Notes under the pieces: model-generated | Database searches by the model: none | Seen by the model: the letters and a program-made list of their open reading frames with translations, nothing else | What the model was told of the DNA's origin: nothing | Origin: an uncultured Myxococcales bacterium | Lineage (GTDB): Bacteria > Myxococcota_A > Bradymonadia > UBA4248 | Length of the DNA: 25,991 nucleotides | Assembly: GCA_964454015.1 (NCBI GenBank) | Contig: CAYVQF010000041.1 | Coordinates: 1-25,991, forward strand | Direction: 5' to 3' | In this document: in pieces, positions 4,860 to 25,991 of the stretch | How the letters are laid out: each line of letters opens with the position of its first letter | How positions within the stretch are numbered: the stretch's first letter is position 1 | Position numbers and translations under genes: made by a program

Positions 4860-5468
4860 ATGAACCCCACCCTTTGGAACGAGAAATGGACCGCCAAAGG
4901 CCCCGACGCGGCCCAACATCGACACAGCCCCCATCAGCCTGACCCCCTCCTGCCCCAGCTCGTCGGCCCTTGGCCCACCGGGCGCGCCCTCGACCTCGGC
5001 TGTGGTCTCGGCGCCAACGCCCGTTGGTTGGCTCGCCAGGGGTGGCAGGTCTGTGGCCTCGATTTCTCCTCAGTGGCCATCGACTTCGCCCGCCGCCTCG
5101 CCGAGCAGGACGAAAACCCTCCGGATTTTCGCGTCGCCGACGTGACCACTCTCGCCGCCGACGAGACCTTTGACCTGGTGACCGCCTTCTACCTCCACCT
5201 CAGCCAGGCCCAGCGTCAATCCCTTCTGGCCACGCTACACCAACACCTGCGCCCGGGGGGGCACGTGGTCTTCGTCGCCCATGACCGCAGCGACCAGAGC
5301 TGGTCACCCTCGGATCCCAAAGGACCACCGCCGGAAATCCTCACCACCCCGGAGGAGGTGAGGGCCGAACTGAGCGGCCTGCAGGTGCTGCGCGCCGAGG
5401 TCATCCTCCACGACGCCCACCAGGACGGACGGGCTGCGCCCGTCACGGTGGTCGTGGCGCAGCGCTAA
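4860..5468 (+). CDS. Class I SAM-dependent methyltransferase (TPMT/TehB-like)
   Basis: Motif I LDLGCGLGANARWLARQGWQVCGLDFS. AGGAGA SD 6 nt before the ATG. 202 aa. Confidence 0.7.
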   Translation: MNPTLWNEKWTAKGPDAAQHRHSPHQPDPLLPQLVGPWPTGRALDLGCGLGANARWLARQGWQVCGLDFSSVAIDFARRLAEQDENPPDFRVADVTTLAADETFDLVTAFYLHLSQAQRQSLLATLHQHLRPGGHVVFVAHDRSDQSWSPSDPKGPPPEILTTPEEVRAELSGLQVLRAEVILHDAHQDGRAAPVTVVVAQR

Positions 5469-5532
5469 TTCATGGGCGAGGCCTCGGGCGGGCCGCCACG
5501 GGAACGCACACAAAGCGCCCCAGCCGCGCCGC

Positions 5533-6459
5533 TCAGCCAATGGCGGCGTAAGAGGTGTTGTCGATGCGGAAGCGCAGCCACTTGGCCATGAACCACGGGG
5601 CGTAGATCCCGACGGTGATGAGGGTCAAGAGGTAGCCCACCAAGAACAACACGAAGAGCTGCCCACCCGTGCCGCCAAAGTTCCCGGCGAGGGTGCGCCC
5701 GGCCACGTGGACCCGGGTGTTGTTGACGAAGAACTGGGTCAATTTCACCGTGAACCACGGCATGTAGATGCCGAAGGTGATGAGGGTCAAGAGGTAGCCC
5801 ACCAAGAAGGTCACGAAGAGGCTGCCACCCGTGCCGACGAAGCTCAACTTGCCGATGGGCTGGTTATTCTCGAGGATCGCCATGTGGTCTTTGATGTAGC
5901 GCTGAATCTTGCACATGAACCACGGCATGTAGATGCCGATGGTGATGAGGGTCAAGAGGTAGCCCACCAGGAAGGTCACGAAGAGCTTGCCCCCCGTGCC
6001 ACCGAAGTGCAGCTTGTACTCCGTGCCATCCTGAGCCCGCGCGCTCGAATGGTCCGCCAAATAAGCGACGAGGTTGCGCATGAACCACGCGCCGTAGATC
6101 CCCAAGGTGAGCAGGGTCAGGAGGTAACCCACCAGGAAGAGCACGAAGAGCTTGCCCCCCGAGCCGACGAAGACCGGCACCAGCGTCCCGCGACGGGTGC
6201 CGGCGATGGTGCTGTTTTCAAAAATGTAACGGGTCATGCGCACCATGAACCACGGCATATAGATGCCGAAGGTGATCAAGGTCAGCAGGTAACCGATGAG
6301 AAAGTTGACGAAGAGACCGCCACCGGTGCCGTGAAACTTGAGCTCCACCTTGCCGCCGCCAGCGCCCATGTGGGGGATGGCACCCATGGCCTGGGTGGGC
6401 GCGTACTCGAGCGCCGGATCCTGCAGATAGGGGTCCTGTCCCCCTGCGATATAGCTCAT
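5533..6459 (-). CDS. Polytopic membrane protein made of five tandem ~55-aa repeats (DUF898/YjgN-like, tentative)
   Basis: Five copies of G(T/S)GGxLFVxFLVGYLLTL(I/L)TxGIYxPWFxxK with variable hydrophilic linkers. GGGAGA SD upstream of the ATG at 6459. The GIYxPW repeat is recalled from memory as a feature of the YjgN family. Confidence 0.75.
   Translation of the reverse strand: MSYIAGGQDPYLQDPALEYAPTQAMGAIPHMGAGGGKVELKFHGTGGGLFVNFLIGYLLTLITFGIYMPWFMVRMTRYIFENSTIAGTRRGTLVPVFVGSGGKLFVLFLVGYLLTLLTLGIYGAWFMRNLVAYLADHSSARAQDGTEYKLHFGGTGGKLFVTFLVGYLLTLITIGIYMPWFMCKIQRYIKDHMAILENNQPIGKLSFVGTGGSLFVTFLVGYLLTLITFGIYMPWFTVKLTQFFVNNTRVHVAGRTLAGNFGGTGGQLFVLFLVGYLLTLITVGIYAPWFMAKWLRFRIDNTSYAAIG
5585..6360. 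repeat. Five tandem ~160-167-bp direct repeats inside the CDS (intragenic duplication)
   Basis: Near-identical cores catgaaccacggcatgtagatgccgaaggtgatgagggtcaagaggtagcccaccaagaag... recur starting near 5591, 5751, 5911, 6080 and 6245. Confidence 0.8.
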
Positions 6460-6662
6460 GGCTTCTCCCTAGACGTGCATTGGACCAAAGAGTCTGTTCA
6501 GCGAAAGGTCGTAGAAGGTCATCTTCGTGTTCCCTCACCGACGCGAAACACCGATGGCGGCACGCTAACAAAGCGTGCGCCCGGCGTCAATTCACGTTCG
6601 GCCGCACCCTGACGAATTGGCGCGGGCCGCCGCGCCCCCAACCCGCCACGGCACACGGCAGA

Positions 6663-8195
6663 TCACGCCTCGGCCTCGTGCTCCAGCTCGACCTTTTTGC
6701 CGACGATGCGGTGATAGGCCAAGAGCATGAGGGCACAGGAGACCGACAGGCCGCCGAAGATCAGCCACATGATATCGGGCCGACCGAGGTCCCGCGCCAA
6801 GTAGCCGTAAAGACGGCCCGAGAGGATGCCGCCAAAGAGGTTCCCTAAAGCGTTGCACCACATGTAGTAGCCCATGTAGAGACCCACCTTGTCCCGGGGC
6901 GCCACGGCCCGCGCCGTGTACTCCTTGGCCTTGGGCGATGCCATCATCTCGCCGAAGCTGAAGACGAAGACCCCCATGACCACGAACCAGGGGTTCACCC
7001 CCAAGGTCAGGAGGGAGAAGGAGATGGCCGTGATCCCGATCCCGATCATGATGGTGATGAGCGGCTTCATGCGGGCGACCACGGACGAGACGATCACCTG
7101 GAAGAAGATAATGGCCAAGGCGTTGATGTTGATGATCTGCTCGGGCTTGATGTGTCCCGTCTCGGTGGCAAAAATGCTCTTCAAGGTCGCGACGCCGCCA
7201 TCACCGGCCCCCAAAGACGTCGCCAAACCAATGATGCTGTTCATCAGCTTGTCCGTCTCGGAGAAGTCGCGGATGTACTCGGGCAAGGTGAGAAAAATCT
7301 GATTGAAGGCCACCCAGAAGCTGGACAGCAGGAGTAAAAAGAGGAGAAAGCGGGCGTGACCGATGCGCATACAGTGCTGCCCTCTGCCCGTGGCGCGCAA
7401 AATCACGTCCAAGACGATGTTGGCCACGATCCAGCCCACGCCCCAAAGCGCGACCTCGGCCAAGGATAGCCAGCGCGACCCAAGGACCAAAACCACCAAG
7501 ACCACAAAGACAGCCAGGAAGAAGCGCGCGTTGCCAATGACCTCCATCATGTCGGTCATCACCTTCTTGAAGGATCGCTTGTTGGTGGACGTGGACTCGC
7601 CCTCGGGCTCCTTGTAGAAGAACAACAAAATCGGGATGTTCAACGCGATCCAAATGGAAGAAGCATAGAAGACGTACTCCCAGCCAGCGGTGCGCATCCA
7701 CGCCGCCAGGAAGGGACCGGCGAAGCCACCCATGTTCACCATCATGTAAAATATACCAAAACCAAGCGAAGCCGTTTTATCGGTTGTGGTTTTACCAATG
7801 GTCCCCACGATGAGAGGCTTGAAAATGGCCGCGCCCAGACCCACCAACATGAAAGCCCCGAAGAAGGCCGGGAAGGTCTTCATTTGCCCCAAAAGGAAAT
7901 AGGCAGGGGACAAAATACAGTAGGAAACCAACAGCATCTTCTTGAAGCCGTAACGATCGCCCAAGGCGCCCGTAAAGAACGGGAACAAGTAGATGAAGAA
8001 GGTCACCACCCCCTGCAGAAGCCCTCGATCTTCCGAGGAAAATCCCAAACCTCCCTCAGAGACCGAGCCCGTGATGTAGACCGTGGACAAGGCAAAAAAG
8101 CCATACCAGGACATCCGCTCGAAAATCTCCATCACGTTGGAGACCCAGAACGTAGAGGGAAAACGTTTGAAAACGTTCACTTTCTGCTCCGCCAT
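6663..8195 (-). CDS. POT/PTR2-family proton-dependent di-/tripeptide transporter (DtpT-like MFS permease)
   Basis: FWVSNVMEIFERMSWYG and FYMMVNMGGF signature regions with many TM segments. Start refined to MAEQKVN (ATG at 8195) with a GGAGAGGAG SD. The ORF-track ORF extends 24 codons upstream. Confidence 0.8.
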   Translation of the reverse strand: MAEQKVNVFKRFPSTFWVSNVMEIFERMSWYGFFALSTVYITGSVSEGGLGFSSEDRGLLQGVVTFFIYLFPFFTGALGDRYGFKKMLLVSYCILSPAYFLLGQMKTFPAFFGAFMLVGLGAAIFKPLIVGTIGKTTTDKTASLGFGIFYMMVNMGGFAGPFLAAWMRTAGWEYVFYASSIWIALNIPILLFFYKEPEGESTSTNKRSFKKVMTDMMEVIGNARFFLAVFVVLVVLVLGSRWLSLAEVALWGVGWIVANIVLDVILRATGRGQHCMRIGHARFLLFLLLLSSFWVAFNQIFLTLPEYIRDFSETDKLMNSIIGLATSLGAGDGGVATLKSIFATETGHIKPEQIININALAIIFFQVIVSSVVARMKPLITIMIGIGITAISFSLLTLGVNPWFVVMGVFVFSFGEMMASPKAKEYTARAVAPRDKVGLYMGYYMWCNALGNLFGGILSGRLYGYLARDLGRPDIMWLIFGGLSVSCALMLLAYHRIVGKKVELEHEAEA

Positions 8196-15418: not shown

Positions 15419-18400
15419 GGCAGCTCCCGGACGCAGCGAAATCCCACACGCGGCAGGCGCGCGCAACCCAGCTCCCCCGACGGCGCTGGCGCCATCATCG
15501 CCGCCTGCCACCAGAACGGGGCGTCATCGCTCGCGCCGCCCATGATCCCAAAGCCGCCGCTGCAGTGCTGGCGCAAGCCCGGCTCACAGCGCACCCACTC
15601 CCCCACTGAGGCGGCCAAATCGAAAATCCCCTCGGGGGTCCGGTTCCACGCCACACTGGCAACCCCACGCTGCCCGCGCAGCGCCTCCTCCCGCGACTCA
15701 CTCAACTCACCGGCGAAGGCATAGTTGCGCCCCTCCAACCCCCGGGCCAAAGCCTCAAAGTCCCGCTCCGTCGGCAAGCGCATCCCCAAACTGGCACAAA
15801 AAGCCTCGGCCTCCAGCGCCCCCACCCCGGTCAAGGGCGCGCCATCCTCGGCACAGAGCGCCACCTGCCCCACGCACGCCGTCGCCGGCGCCTGGCCCGA
15901 CGCGAGCCACCGCCACAAGCCACACGTCACCTCAGTGCTCATCACCTCTAGCCGCGGCCGCTGCCAAGTCTCCCGCGCCAACACCGCCACCCCCGGACGC
16001 GCAAAATGGTGCAGGTCGCGATGAACCCGGCGCAGCCACTCTTGTTGCCGCTCGCTCAGGCCCAGCTCCACTTCGCCCGTCTCGACGCGCAACAGGGGCA
16101 CCTTGTCGGCGATCTCTCTGGGATCCACGTAAGGTAGTTGCCAACGCCCTTCAGCGTAACGCCCTTGACTCAGGGCGTGCGCCTCACCGTCCAAGCCGCG
16201 GCGCAGCACCCACAGTCGTACGGCCACCGCCGCAGCCTCCTCCCGCGCAGGCGGGAGCACGGGACCGGCAGCGCCGAGCACGCGCAGGGACTCACCCCGC
16301 TGCAGGCGCTGCGCCACATCGTCCAGCAGCATGGGCGCGGCGATGACCTCAGCGCCACTGCCGAGGCGCGCCAGCGCCTGCTGCCAGCCTTCCTCGCCCG
16401 CCGCGGGAACGGCCAGGATCAACCCCAGGCCGAGGCGCACCGTCGCGTCATAGACCGCAGCGCTGCGCTTGCTCAACGCCAGCTCGCCAAAGTCGGCGCG
16501 CACCGTCTCGGCCAAGGCCGCAAAGGCCGGCCCCTCGCCGCCCTCTCGCCCCACGATCTGCACCCGGTCCAGCAGGTCGCCCTGGCGCATCAGATCGAAG
16601 AGCGCCCGGGTGTGTGCCCAGTCCAGGGTGAGGTAGCGCGGCCCGCCCGCGGCAAAGGCCGCCTCGATGAAGCCAAGCACCTCTGCGCTCTCCTCTTCAC
16701 CAAGCAGAAGGAGCAAGTCCGCACCGGCGGCGGCCACCCGCTGCGCCATCGCGCGCCGCGCCTCTTCTTTGCCGCCATAGCGCTCGATCTGGGTCTGCAC
16801 TTGGCTCCCAGCCAGGGCGGGCAGCAACTCGGCGAGGAGGCGCTCGCCGCGCTCCCCATCGGGCACCACCACTGCCACCTGGCGCTGTTCTTGAAGTTGC
16901 ACAAAAGCCGCCACGGCGCGCAGCGTGTCCAAGGCATCGCCGCCCGCATAATGCAGGGACGTGTCGCCGCCCACCCCAAGCCCTGGCCCCGGGGCCGCCA
17001 GCCGCAACGGCCCCTCGGCCACGGCGCGCGCCACCAGAGTAGCGCGGCTCGAGGCCAGGGGCAGCACCAGGGCGTCGACCCCCACGTGGTTCACCAAGTG
17101 GGCGGCCGCCCGCGAGCTGCGTTGCCCATCACCACCGTCGTCACAGGAGATGAGCACCAGGGGCGGCGTCAAAGCCGCGCTGTTCAGCCCGCGCACGGCC
17201 AAGCGCGCCACCAGCATGGCCTGTCGCACCTCGCCGTTGGTGCCGTTGTCGATGTGGCCGATGAAGCGGGCCTGATCCACGCCGACGGCGCCTTCGACCA
17301 CGTGGCAGTCTTCAGACTGCCAGGACACACAGGCGCCCTCACGGCACAAGGTCTCACCGGGGCACTCACTGTGGCGGCGACAGGAGGGCGCCCCTTCTGG
17401 GCCCGCGCTGGCTTCGGTCGTTTGCGGGCGCGGTGTGGCGGTCTTCTCGTCACTCAGGAGGCGCAGGCCCACGGCGATGCCCAGAATCCCCAGGGCAAAG
17501 AGGGCCAGGAGCCAGATCCAGGTGCGCCGGGCCGCGCCGCTGTCGTCCGCGCCGGCCGCAGGTGCCGCAAGGGGAGCCGCCCCCGCAGGCGCACGCCCCG
17601 GCGCAGGTGGATCCAAAGAGGGGCGTTCGCCGCGGCGCCAGTCGTCGAGATCGGCCATCATGGTCTCGGCATTGGCGTAGCGCGCGCCGAGGTCCTTGGC
17701 GACGGCACAGCTCAGGATGGCGCGCAGCCCGGGATCGGTGATTTCGGCGGGGATGGCGATGGGGTCGTCGTCGACGTGGCGCAGGGCCACCTCGAAGTTG
17801 CTGTCGCCTTGGATGGCCACGCGGCCGCTCAGGGCCTCGATGAAGACCAGGCCCCAGGAGTAGAGGTCCGACTGGGGGGTCATGGGGCGCTGGCGGAGCT
17901 GTTCCGGCGAGATGTACTGGGGTGTGCCGCGTACTTCTTGCTTGGAGGTCAGGCTGACGTAGCTCTTGTCGCGGGCTTCGACCAGGATGCCGGCGATGCC
18001 GAAATCGAGGACCATGGCGTTGCGGCAGCGGCCCCCGGGGGTGAGCATGATGTTCTGCGGTTTGAGATCGCGGTGGATGATGCCTTGGCGGTGGGCATAG
18101 GCCAGGGCGTCGGCCACTTGGCTCATGAGGTGCACCGCTTCCTCGACGCCGAGCTTGCCCTCACGGCGGATGACATCGTGGAGGGTGTGGCCCTCGATGA
18201 AGTCCAGGACCAGGAAGAGTTCTTTGTCGCCCATGGTCCCGGCGTCGATGAGGCGGACGATGTTGGGATGCTTCAGGCGGGAGATGAGCTTCATCTCGCG
18301 GTTGAAGCGTTTGACCTCGCGCCACACCTCTTCCTTGCGCACGCTCTCCGTGAGGAGAAACTTGACCGCCACGGTTTGGCCCGTGGAGATCTGGGTGGCC

Positions 18401-18492
18401 CTATAGACGACTCCAAAACCGCCTTCGCCGATCTGCTCGTCGAGTCGAAAGCGGTCGTCGATGACCTCACCCTTGCGCGCGCGTCCAGCCAT
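15415..18492 (-). CDS. Receptor-type Ser/Thr protein kinase: kinase domain, single TM, PBP1-like (Leu/Ile/Val-binding-type) ectodomain, C-terminal FGE-sulfatase domain
   Basis: Kinase motifs GEGGFGVVY, VAVK, HRDLKPQNIML, DFG, SPEQ. TM WIWLLALFALGILGIAVGLRLL encoded at about 17462-17527. Cys-rich segment, then a periplasmic-binding-protein-like region. FGE-type C-terminus (VGEWVRCEP..., RVGFRCVRE). ATG at 18492 chosen over the track's TTG at 18591. Confidence 0.85.
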   Translation of the reverse strand: MAGRARKGEVIDDRFRLDEQIGEGGFGVVYRATQISTGQTVAVKFLLTESVRKEEVWREVKRFNREMKLISRLKHPNIVRLIDAGTMGDKELFLVLDFIEGHTLHDVIRREGKLGVEEAVHLMSQVADALAYAHRQGIIHRDLKPQNIMLTPGGRCRNAMVLDFGIAGILVEARDKSYVSLTSKQEVRGTPQYISPEQLRQRPMTPQSDLYSWGLVFIEALSGRVAIQGDSNFEVALRHVDDDPIAIPAEITDPGLRAILSCAVAKDLGARYANAETMMADLDDWRRGERPSLDPPAPGRAPAGAAPLAAPAAGADDSGAARRTWIWLLALFALGILGIAVGLRLLSDEKTATPRPQTTEASAGPEGAPSCRRHSECPGETLCREGACVSWQSEDCHVVEGAVGVDQARFIGHIDNGTNGEVRQAMLVARLAVRGLNSAALTPPLVLISCDDGGDGQRSSRAAAHLVNHVGVDALVLPLASSRATLVARAVAEGPLRLAAPGPGLGVGGDTSLHYAGGDALDTLRAVAAFVQLQEQRQVAVVVPDGERGERLLAELLPALAGSQVQTQIERYGGKEEARRAMAQRVAAAGADLLLLLGEEESAEVLGFIEAAFAAGGPRYLTLDWAHTRALFDLMRQGDLLDRVQIVGREGGEGPAFAALAETVRADFGELALSKRSAAVYDATVRLGLGLILAVPAAGEEGWQQALARLGSGAEVIAAPMLLDDVAQRLQRGESLRVLGAAGPVLPPAREEAAAVAVRLWVLRRGLDGEAHALSQGRYAEGRWQLPYVDPREIADKVPLLRVETGEVELGLSERQQEWLRRVHRDLHHFARPGVAVLARETWQRPRLEVMSTEVTCGLWRWLASGQAPATACVGQVALCAEDGAPLTGVGALEAEAFCASLGMRLPTERDFEALARGLEGRNYAFAGELSESREEALRGQRGVASVAWNRTPEGIFDLAASVGEWVRCEPGLRQHCSGGFGIMGGASDDAPFWWQAAMMAPAPSGELGCARLPRVGFRCVRELP

Positions 18493-18629
18493 CTCACCAC
18501 CTTGCGCCAAGTGCCCAGCGCGGCGCCTGATCTGCGCCCAGGGCCGCCGCGATCCAAGGATGGCACGCCGCCCGCGTTTTGTGCAAGCCAAGGCGCAGCG
18601 TGGGGTGATCCGCGCGTTGACATCGGGCC

Positions 18630-25431: not shown

Positions 25432-25991
25432 TCAGCGCGTGCGCCCCCGTTGGAGGCCCTTGACCCGCTTGGGCGCACAGTCCTGGCCAGGAGGACAAGC
25501 GGCCTCGTCCTCGTCGTCTGCTTGGTCAGGATCCTCACTTTCTTCACCCTCTTGTGGGGCATCCTGACCTTTGGTCTGCCCTGGGCGCTTGATCTTACTG
25601 CCACGCTCGCGCGCCGGCGCCGGGTCAGCGGCCTTCTCGTTGCGCTCCCGTTCCAGGCGCTCCCGCTCGGCCTGCTCGTTGCGCTCCCGTTCTTTGCGCT
25701 CGCGTTCGGCCTGGGCTGCCCGTTCATGCTCCTGACGATCCCGCGCAGCCTTCTCGTTGCGCTCGCGCTCCTGGCGTTCCTTCTCGGCCTTCTCGTTGCG
25801 CTCCCGTTCTTTGCGCTCGCGTTCGGCCTGGCTTGCCCGTTCATGCTCCTGACGATCCCGCTCGGCCTTCTCGTTGCGCTCGCGCTCCTGGCGTTCCCGC
25901 TCGGCCTTCTCGTTGCGCTCCCGTTCTTTGCGCTCACGTTCGGCCTGGCTTGCCCGTTCATGCTCCTGACGATCCCGCTCGGCCTTCTCGT
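25432..25991 (-). CDS. E/R/K-rich tandem-repeat protein, C-terminal part (5' end lies beyond the window); a different frame from ORF-track 25416..25961
   Basis: Minus-strand frame with codon first bases at positions divisible by 3 is open from the window edge to the TGA at 25434-25432. It encodes ...RDRQEHERASQAERERKERERNEKAEKERQERERNEKAA... repeats, then ...EGEESEDPDQADDEDEAACPPGQDCAPKRVKGLQRGRTR*. Arg is encoded by CGN in this frame. The track's frame needs rare AGG/AGA codons and yields low-complexity SATRRP text. The frame contains no ATG/GTG/TTG, which would explain why the ORF finder did not list it. Confidence 0.55.
   Translation of the reverse strand, partial: EKAERDRQEHERASQAERERKERERNEKAERERQERERNEKAERDRQEHERASQAERERKERERNEKAEKERQERERNEKAARDRQEHERAAQAERERKERERNEQAERERLERERNEKAADPAPARERGSKIKRPGQTKGQDAPQEGEESEDPDQADDEDEAACPPGQDCAPKRVKGLQRGRTR
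25615..25991. repeat. 120-bp tandem direct repeats (at least 3 full units, continuing past window end)
   Basis: The unit ...cgttcatgctcctgacgatcccgc(t/g)cggccttctcgttgcgctcgcgctcctggcgttcc... recurs at about 25726, 25846 and 25966 with few substitutions. Confidence 0.8.

Follow-up and report, generated by a model that had tools for sequence, protein, structure and literature searches.

Does a gene made of tandem repeats record a recent amplification whose copy number is still moving, or an old architecture that only resembles one? We addressed this question in a window of 25,991 nucleotides (nt) from an uncultured Myxococcales bacterium (contig CAYVQF010000041.1), in which the minus strand of 5533-6459 encodes a predicted membrane protein built of five repeats of approximately 55 amino acids (aa). 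A first-pass annotation, made from the letters of the window alone, had proposed recent or homogenised amplification within the gene. Our best explanation, which as a whole we hold to be probably correct, is that, within the DUF898/YjgN superfamily, the gene encodes a minimal form with five units, which is common in Myxococcota and belongs to an uncharacterised family that is already known.

The gene and its repeat units

A single open reading frame (ORF) with an ATG start fills exactly 5533-6459 (927 nt, 308 aa) in the ORF list. The GC content at third codon positions (GC3) was 0.89 in this minus-strand frame vs. 0.52 in the antisense ORF at 5707-6612 (301 aa). The minus-strand frame was therefore taken as the coding one, and the antisense ORF was dismissed as a shadow ORF. 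The first residues of the five tandem units are 38, 93, 148, 203, and 257, with a period of 55/55/55/54 aa (165/165/165/162 nt). Tandem Repeats Finder (TRF) gave a period of 165 nt for the gene, and a separate repeat finder returned one family (D1) of 5 copies with spacings of 162/165/165/165 nt. The features are as follows; strands and helices are predicted, and pLDDT is the predicted local distance difference test.

5533..6459, minus strand: complete coding sequence of a five-unit DUF898-type membrane protein (ORF list, GC3, PF05987 at 146.6 bits)
6465..6469, minus strand: GGGAG, putative Shine-Dalgarno-like site 5 nt upstream of the ATG, read from the sequence
6352..6459, minus strand: N-terminal tail, residues 1-36, rich in Gly, Pro, and Gln, predicted disordered (pLDDT 43-55 over residues 1-30)
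6184..6348, minus strand: unit 1, residues 38-92, core 6244-6336; strand 37-42, helix A 46-62, helix B 68-81, strand 83-88
6019..6183, minus strand: unit 2, residues 93-147, core 6079-6171; strand 91-97, helix A 101-117, helix B 123-136, strand 138-141
5854..6018, minus strand: unit 3, residues 148-202, core 5914-6006; strand 147-152, helix A 156-172, helix B 178-191, strand 193-197
5692..5853, minus strand: unit 4, residues 203-256, core 5749-5841; strand 200-207, helix A 211-227, helix B 233-246, strand 248-252
5536..5691, minus strand: unit 5, residues 257-308, core 5587-5679; strand 255-261, helix A 265-281, helix B 287-300, strand 302-306

The motif G(T/S)GGxLFVxFLVGYLLTLITxGIYxPWF fitted units 3-5 exactly, with one mismatch in unit 1 and two in unit 2. 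Periodicity and motif are both real, far beyond chance, and in this the first-pass annotation was right; its description of the repeats as near-identical was not. Whole 55-aa units were 44-57% identical to unit 1. The 31-aa cores (F-x-G-T-G-G ... P-W-F-M) were 71-87% identical in amino acids and 71-91% identical in nucleotides, and the remainder outside the cores (approximately 21 aa per unit) was 5-24% and 29-49% identical, respectively. Near-identical DNA along the whole unit, as expected of a recently amplified repeat, was not found: over 130 nt, the copies were 63-78% identical to the reference copy (repeat finder), and the longest exact run of DNA between two units was 33 nt. Thus, a period of 162-165 nt exists as described, and the statement that the cores are nearly identical at the nucleotide level went too far.

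Collapse or expansion of the repeat during assembly, which had been raised as a possible source of error, was ruled out, because the divergence between copies is too great for collapse and the 927-nt gene showed zero differences among four contigs that were assembled independently from four samples in the European Nucleotide Archive. A protein identical to the window product (P0001) was present in public collections. A scan of 5350-6800 for promoters and terminators gave nothing beyond the shuffled expectation.

Family membership

The kinship with DUF898/YjgN that had been suggested at first pass was borne out by a Pfam scan. PF05987 (DUF898) matched in five stretches with 146.6 bits against a cutoff of 28 (expectation value, E, 1.3e-42), and the homologues bear the NCBI and JGI label "DUF898 family protein." Each unit scanned alone scored 31.1-45.5 bits against PF05987. 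A match along the full 336-position model was not found, because every unit covered profile positions 3-53. The whole protein also exceeded the cutoffs of DUF4234 (PF14018; 68.7 vs. 25.3 bits) and DUF6693 (PF20403; 44.6 vs. 31 bits). Single units fell below both of these cutoffs, and we therefore read the two matches as overlapping descriptions of the same motif. No meaningful match for the window protein was obtained in NCBIfam, PADLOC, or PHROGs.

All five units aligned to residues 9-64 of Escherichia coli YjgN with 37-46% identity (BLASTP). When a profile of the unit was run on YjgN, the N-terminal unit alone was significant (E 2e-18; all others E > 0.05), and beyond residue 64 neither BLASTP nor the unit profile gave YjgN a significant counterpart in the window protein. 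To judge from these alignments, the window protein is a relative of YjgN with a different and far more regular architecture.

Age and number of the repeats

Relatives were compared in the best 120 of 257 homologues (43-61% identical to the window protein); in 81 genes, comprising 80 fetched loci and the window, from a one-genome-per-species scan with 403 relatives, nearly all of them Myxococcota; and in a unit-profile search of 1.84 billion representative proteins that gave 3,513 matches, the best 150 of which were examined. The named homologues belonged to Nannocystaceae, Enhygromyxa, and other Myxococcota.

Five units were found in 116 of the 120 homologues. Their spacing, taken from hmmsearch envelope starts, was 55/55/55/54 in 79 homologues and 54/55/55/54 in 22 more, and the four-unit cases (4 of 120) were short proteins on contigs of 1-2 kb. 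The same number was found in 80 of the 81 genome loci. Among the best 150 unit-profile matches, five was the commonest count and six was the maximum, with counts of 2-4 also occurring. The first unit of the homologues began anywhere from residue 2 to residue 108, and the N-terminal tail varied in length and sequence. Neither these sets nor the four identical assemblies gave evidence of copy-number differences among strains or related species. One metagenome-assembled genome carries two paralogues of the gene (L022 and L027).

The segments outside the cores carried a positional signal. Between proteins, their identity was 0.32-0.46 at the same position vs. 0.21-0.34 at different positions; the cores were without such a signal (0.63-0.66 vs. 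0.59-0.65). The nearest neighbours of query segments 2, 3, and 4 were almost all the same-numbered segment of other proteins, and for query segments 1 and 5 same-numbered neighbours made up approximately half of the top twelve. The distal segment HSSARAQD of unit 2 resembles NTSATAQD at the same position in orthologues, and NTRVHV of unit 4 resembles NTRIHYQ. In unit 3, the AILEN segment and a nearly invariant Cys183 are position-specific and kept in orthologues.

Because five units and their spacing are kept in the homologues and the non-core segments are orthologous by position, the five-fold repetition is ancient. On this sequence evidence, it predates the radiation of the family, with the copy number fixed at five; the number might be fixed because the fold is closed. 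The very recent duplication proposed at first pass is thus contradicted, and so is the predicted variation of repeat number by slippage or recombination.

Origin of the core similarity

If the repeats are old, why are the cores still so alike in DNA? The answer is mostly purifying selection on one motif combined with a GC3 of 0.89. The cores stay alike because every blade (as we call the folded unit) has the same packing job and the same Gly, Thr, Tyr, and Trp positions are under purifying selection: Gly8, Leu21, Thr25, Tyr29, and Trp32 were present at 99-100% in all five positions. Because GC3 is so high, few synonymous choices are available.

A smaller part of the similarity lies beyond these factors. 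Within each core column, we counted how often units with the same degenerate amino acid also used the same codon. Within the gene, 160 of 230 synonymous codons were identical, against 108.7 expected from the codon usage of the window and 126 from that of the gene itself. Under the strictest null, in which codons were shuffled within the cores' own pool, the expectation was 134.9 ± 5.4 (P = 1.5e-4). Units 2-5 together had 111 of 140 codons in common (0.79), a sum reached by 0 of 20,000 shuffles (P < 5e-5). The excess was most pronounced between units 3 and 4 (23 of 25 synonymous codons; 0 of 20,000 shuffles), followed by units 4 and 5 (21 of 24; P = 9e-4), and unit 4 had exact runs of 29-33 nt in common with units 3 and 5. 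All four pairs involving unit 1 were at the codon-usage expectation (P = 0.65-0.88). Codon identity between the window gene and three orthologues was 0.566, and it ranged over 0.54-0.59 whether positions matched or not; column-specific codon preference is therefore not the cause.

Synonymous states in units 2-5 thus exceeded both the codon-usage and the between-gene expectation, as would be expected under gene conversion. The simplest reading would be occasional short-tract conversion between cores, recurring in the family. Tracts of tens of nt may have homogenised the cores of units 2-5 and left the position-specific helix-B and strand segments untouched. The concerted evolution of the core that had been suggested earlier accordingly keeps a place for units 2-5, as a secondary effect that leaves out unit 1. 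The closest relative found was 61% identical, and synonymous sites are therefore saturated. When 80 genes were compared (79 related loci and the window), the mean synonymous excess was +0.07, the window gene was 11th for total excess, and 15 genes had a pair at P < 0.005 (approximately 4 expected). Orthologue P0005 had 24 of 25 codons in common for pair 1-2.

Other accounts of the same DNA similarity have to be weighed against this one. Recent intragenic amplification by slippage or unequal crossing-over, with a copy number that is still unstable, would account for the head-to-tail units, their period of 162-165 nt, and the 71-91% identity of the core DNA. We regard it as extremely improbable, given that five units with the same spacing recur in homologues down to 43% identity across families of Myxococcota, that the non-core segments are orthologous by position with within-gene DNA identity of 29-49%, that unit 1 is without synonymous excess, that four assemblies show zero differences, and that none of the relatives among the best 150 of 3,513 matches exceeded six detected units. 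A more serious alternative is that selection and codon bias act alone, without gene conversion, the excess reflecting position-specific codon preference or an inadequate null. The GC3 of 0.89 agrees with it, as do orthologues P0004 and P0002, in which codon identity equals expectation (0.70 vs. 0.68 and 0.60 vs. 0.58 expected, respectively); P0002 has a core protein identity as high as that of the query, without codon excess, and the family mean of +0.07 hints at a biased null. We nevertheless consider this account unlikely. The most conservative null was still exceeded, no shuffle reached the value for pair 3-4, the between-gene rate was the same whether or not positions matched, and the excess was confined to units 2-5, in which the exact runs of 29-33 nt also lie.

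Predicted fold

AlphaFold2 (AF2), run on the 120-sequence alignment, gave a model with a pLDDT of 92.1 (95-98 throughout the repeats) and a predicted template modelling score of 0.84. It consists of a strict strand-helix-helix-strand (E-H-H-E) order repeated five times, that is, ten strands and ten helices, with successive units joined by a beta-hairpin. In each unit, a strand leads through a GTGG turn into the 17-residue hydrophobic helix A, and a GIYxPW turn leads into the 14-residue amphipathic, Lys-rich helix B, which is followed by the second strand. Helix B ends in (D/E)-N-T, and the G-I-Y-x-P-W turn is invariant. The pseudo-symmetric modular architecture envisaged at first pass is therefore retained in the form of five equal units, with the amendment that the modules are predicted to be helical hairpins, not single transmembrane spans. 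The linkers, previously described as hydrophilic and variable, are predicted to form an amphipathic helix and a beta-hairpin, and they are conserved by position between species.

YjgN-like P0270 (a 97%-identical YjgN representative), modelled separately, gave the same E-H-H-E order five times with a pLDDT of 86; its hairpins were short in the first and last units (1 and 5) and long in the three between them (2-4). Thus, the window protein and this canonical member agree in their predicted order of elements.

In the predicted fold, the five blades would come together as a single compact domain in which ten helices surround ten antiparallel central strands; closure of this domain is suggested by the order of elements in the model. 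Strand 302-306 of unit 5 would close onto strand 1, and, the outer helices being hydrophobic, the rim would face lipid. No match for the model was found with Foldseek in the PDB (best E 0.28, TM score below 0.2), and the family profile had no match among PDB sequences at E ≤ 1.

Complete two-unit proteins of 93-122 aa, with two copies of the strand-hairpin-strand unit, were observed among the relatives (P0162, P0184, P0194, P0205, P0217, and P0244). Simple homo-oligomers of a two-unit chain cannot make up a five-unit barrel.

Topology and membrane setting

The charge pattern was the same in every unit. K/R occupied columns 1, 36, and 39 (0.62-0.80), corresponding to the start of the first strand and two sites in the first half of helix B, and D/E occupied columns 10 and 43 (0.49-0.58), where helix A begins and helix B ends. 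Because this pattern is identical throughout, all units are read as facing the same way and not as five alternating single spans. The mean Kyte-Doolittle value of helix A was approximately 3-4 at most positions. Along the strands, hydrophobic residues (with an invariant Phe at column 4) alternate with polar or charged ones. Conservation of the polar residues follows position and does not extend across units, a pattern that suits an asymmetric polar interior.

FHA domains are cytoplasmic phosphothreonine-binding modules. An N-terminal FHA domain was found in 5 of 10 long relatives scanned, fused to the five-unit module (P0121, P0127, P0130, P0137, and P0139), which assigns the N-terminus to the cytoplasm and, if the model is followed, the Lys-rich face as well. 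We infer that the protein is embedded in the membrane with both termini and the Lys-rich face on the cytoplasmic side. A C-terminal PASTA domain occurred in three relatives with a more canonical DUF898 module (P0203, P0220, and P0251).

A conventional polytopic topology would instead give each repeat one transmembrane helix of approximately 23 residues (LFV...PWF) in alternating orientation, with flexible hydrophilic loops, and would make the AF2 barrel an artefact. The segment LFVxFLVGYLLTLITxGIYxPWF has the length and hydrophobicity needed to cross the membrane once, the RefSeq name for YjgN is "inner membrane protein," and closure of the barrel is deduced from the AF2 order of elements. Alternating spans would, however, violate the positive-inside rule, since all five inter-core segments have the same K/R-rich pattern, and an odd number of them would put equivalent conserved motifs in non-equivalent environments. 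In all units, the residues at the helix break (Gly, Tyr, Pro, and Trp) show little or no variation, AF2 confidence within the repeats was 95-98, and the separately aligned YjgN-like set gave the same hairpin-plus-strand order. This topology therefore appears quite improbable to us.

Several observations nonetheless tell against our own account. AF2 models of internally repetitive proteins can be overconfident, and searches of the PDB for a solved relative, by Foldseek and by family profile, were negative. With helices of 17 and 14 residues and strands of 4-8 residues, the resulting disc falls short of the thickness of a normal bilayer, and beta-strands that span an inner membrane would be out of the ordinary; the protein could lie at the membrane surface or within a single leaflet instead. 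The family-wide synonymous excess suggests that the codon-usage null is slightly low for some genes. Finally, no conserved operon partner was found among the 80 loci, and no functional study was found in the literature on DUF898, YjgN, and DUF4234.

Neighbourhood and function

In the window, the neighbours of the gene are a major facilitator superfamily transporter on the same strand, across a gap of 203 nt, and a convergent S-adenosylmethionine methyltransferase. A FecR-like anti-sigma factor and an extracytoplasmic function (ECF) sigma factor were located downstream in 20-24 of the 80 loci, usually on the opposite (convergent) strand, and in 18 of the 80 recA lay upstream, with a median separation of approximately 1.5 kb. 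These proximities are lineage synteny, and neither arrangement occurs in the window. In many loci of Nannocystaceae type (L005, L006, L007, and approximately 20 more), the homologue lies approximately 1.3-1.5 kb downstream of recA and adjoins the FecR/ECF pair, usually convergently.

The FHA and PASTA fusions offer hints of a link to Ser/Thr phospho-signalling or to the cell envelope. As a guess, and a rather doubtful one, the protein might be a small inner-membrane conduit or ligand-binding module whose interior is lined by the polar, position-specific strand residues; in relatives, the module is joined to FHA domains, which are cytoplasmic. Our account of structure and evolution has far better support than any proposal on function. 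The sole phenotype found was low biofilm in a transposon mutant of a 101-aa DUF898/DUF4234 protein of Enterococcus faecalis (PMC6753144). The urate oxidase PuuD was rejected as a characterised DUF898 protein: the paper concerned has "DUF898" once and "DUF989" elsewhere, which we read as a typographical error (PMC4562309). This probable error could mislead text-mining for the function of DUF898.

Other parts of the window also drew attention. A 974-aa ORF at 12170-15094 on the plus strand resembles major vault protein (MVP_shoulder, 70.9 bits; Vault_3, 36.9 bits). On the minus strand, 15415-18591 encodes a protein of approximately 1,025-1,058 aa that joins Ser/Thr kinase, periplasmic-binding, and FGE-sulfatase domains. 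At 25629-25991, TRF found a 117-nt tandem repeat with a sub-period of 39 nt (3.1 copies, 93% identity) that runs off the end of the window. By eye, one reverse-strand frame of this repeat apparently encodes an E/R-rich (ERERQERERNEKA-like) repeat, and one translated reverse-strand frame reads differently. The DNA identity between its copies is far higher than in the repeat at 5533-6459.

Significance

Our results are mostly corrective: the DNA repeat is old and fixed and is explained largely by selection and codon bias, with a modest overlay that we attribute to gene conversion. DUF898, DUF4234, and DUF6693 are widespread (3,513 representative clusters matched by the unit profile), and no solved structure was found for them. 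The window protein shows the repeat of the family in its cleanest form; if the models hold, the unit is a strand-hairpin-strand blade, five of which make up a single domain. It also offers a compact target of 270 residues for structure determination and topology mapping. A helix-wrapped beta-barrel in the inner membrane would, if true, be an unusual membrane architecture. We put forward tentatively, as a possibility that falls short of being likely, that DUF898-type proteins form a class of inner-membrane pseudo-five-fold alpha/beta barrels absent from the searched PDB, a lipid-embedded analogue of the prenyltransferase (PT) barrel with a ten-stranded polar interior as conduit or binding chamber. 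The window protein would then be the minimal form, with all blades short, and would display the origin of the fold by repetition from one- or two-unit ancestors similar to DUF4234 and DUF6693.

Comparison with known systems

The unit motif F-x-G-x-G ... LLT-x-iTLGIY-x-PW ... K/R..Y ... N-T is common to the window protein and YjgN (b4257). YjgN, however, has 398 aa, and its units 2-4 carry long helical hairpins with helices of 23-44 residues, whereas all five units of the window protein are of the short N-terminal type. DUF4234 and DUF6693 proteins have the helix A/GIYxPW/helix B motif in common with the window protein but contain one or two units per chain instead of five fused units.

In variable-number tandem-repeat genes, such as those for bacterial surface proteins, the repeats are typically almost identical in DNA and their number varies between strains. 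The window gene resembles them in its tandem in-frame repeats and in the evidence of exchange between repeats. It differs in that the core DNA is 71-91% identical, the putative exchange took the form of short tracts in units 2-5, and the number is fixed at five across the phylum.

A further comparison is with the PT barrel, or ABBA fold, in which five alpha-alpha-beta-beta repeats form a ten-stranded antiparallel barrel ringed by helices; the aromatic prenyltransferases CloQ, FgaPT2, AmbP1, DMATS1, MpnD, and others have this fold. Sequence homology to, or membership of, the ABBA/PT-barrel prenyltransferase families was not found for the window protein. The two have the same order of elements, as predicted for the window protein by AF2, and differ in that the outer helices of the window protein are hydrophobic.

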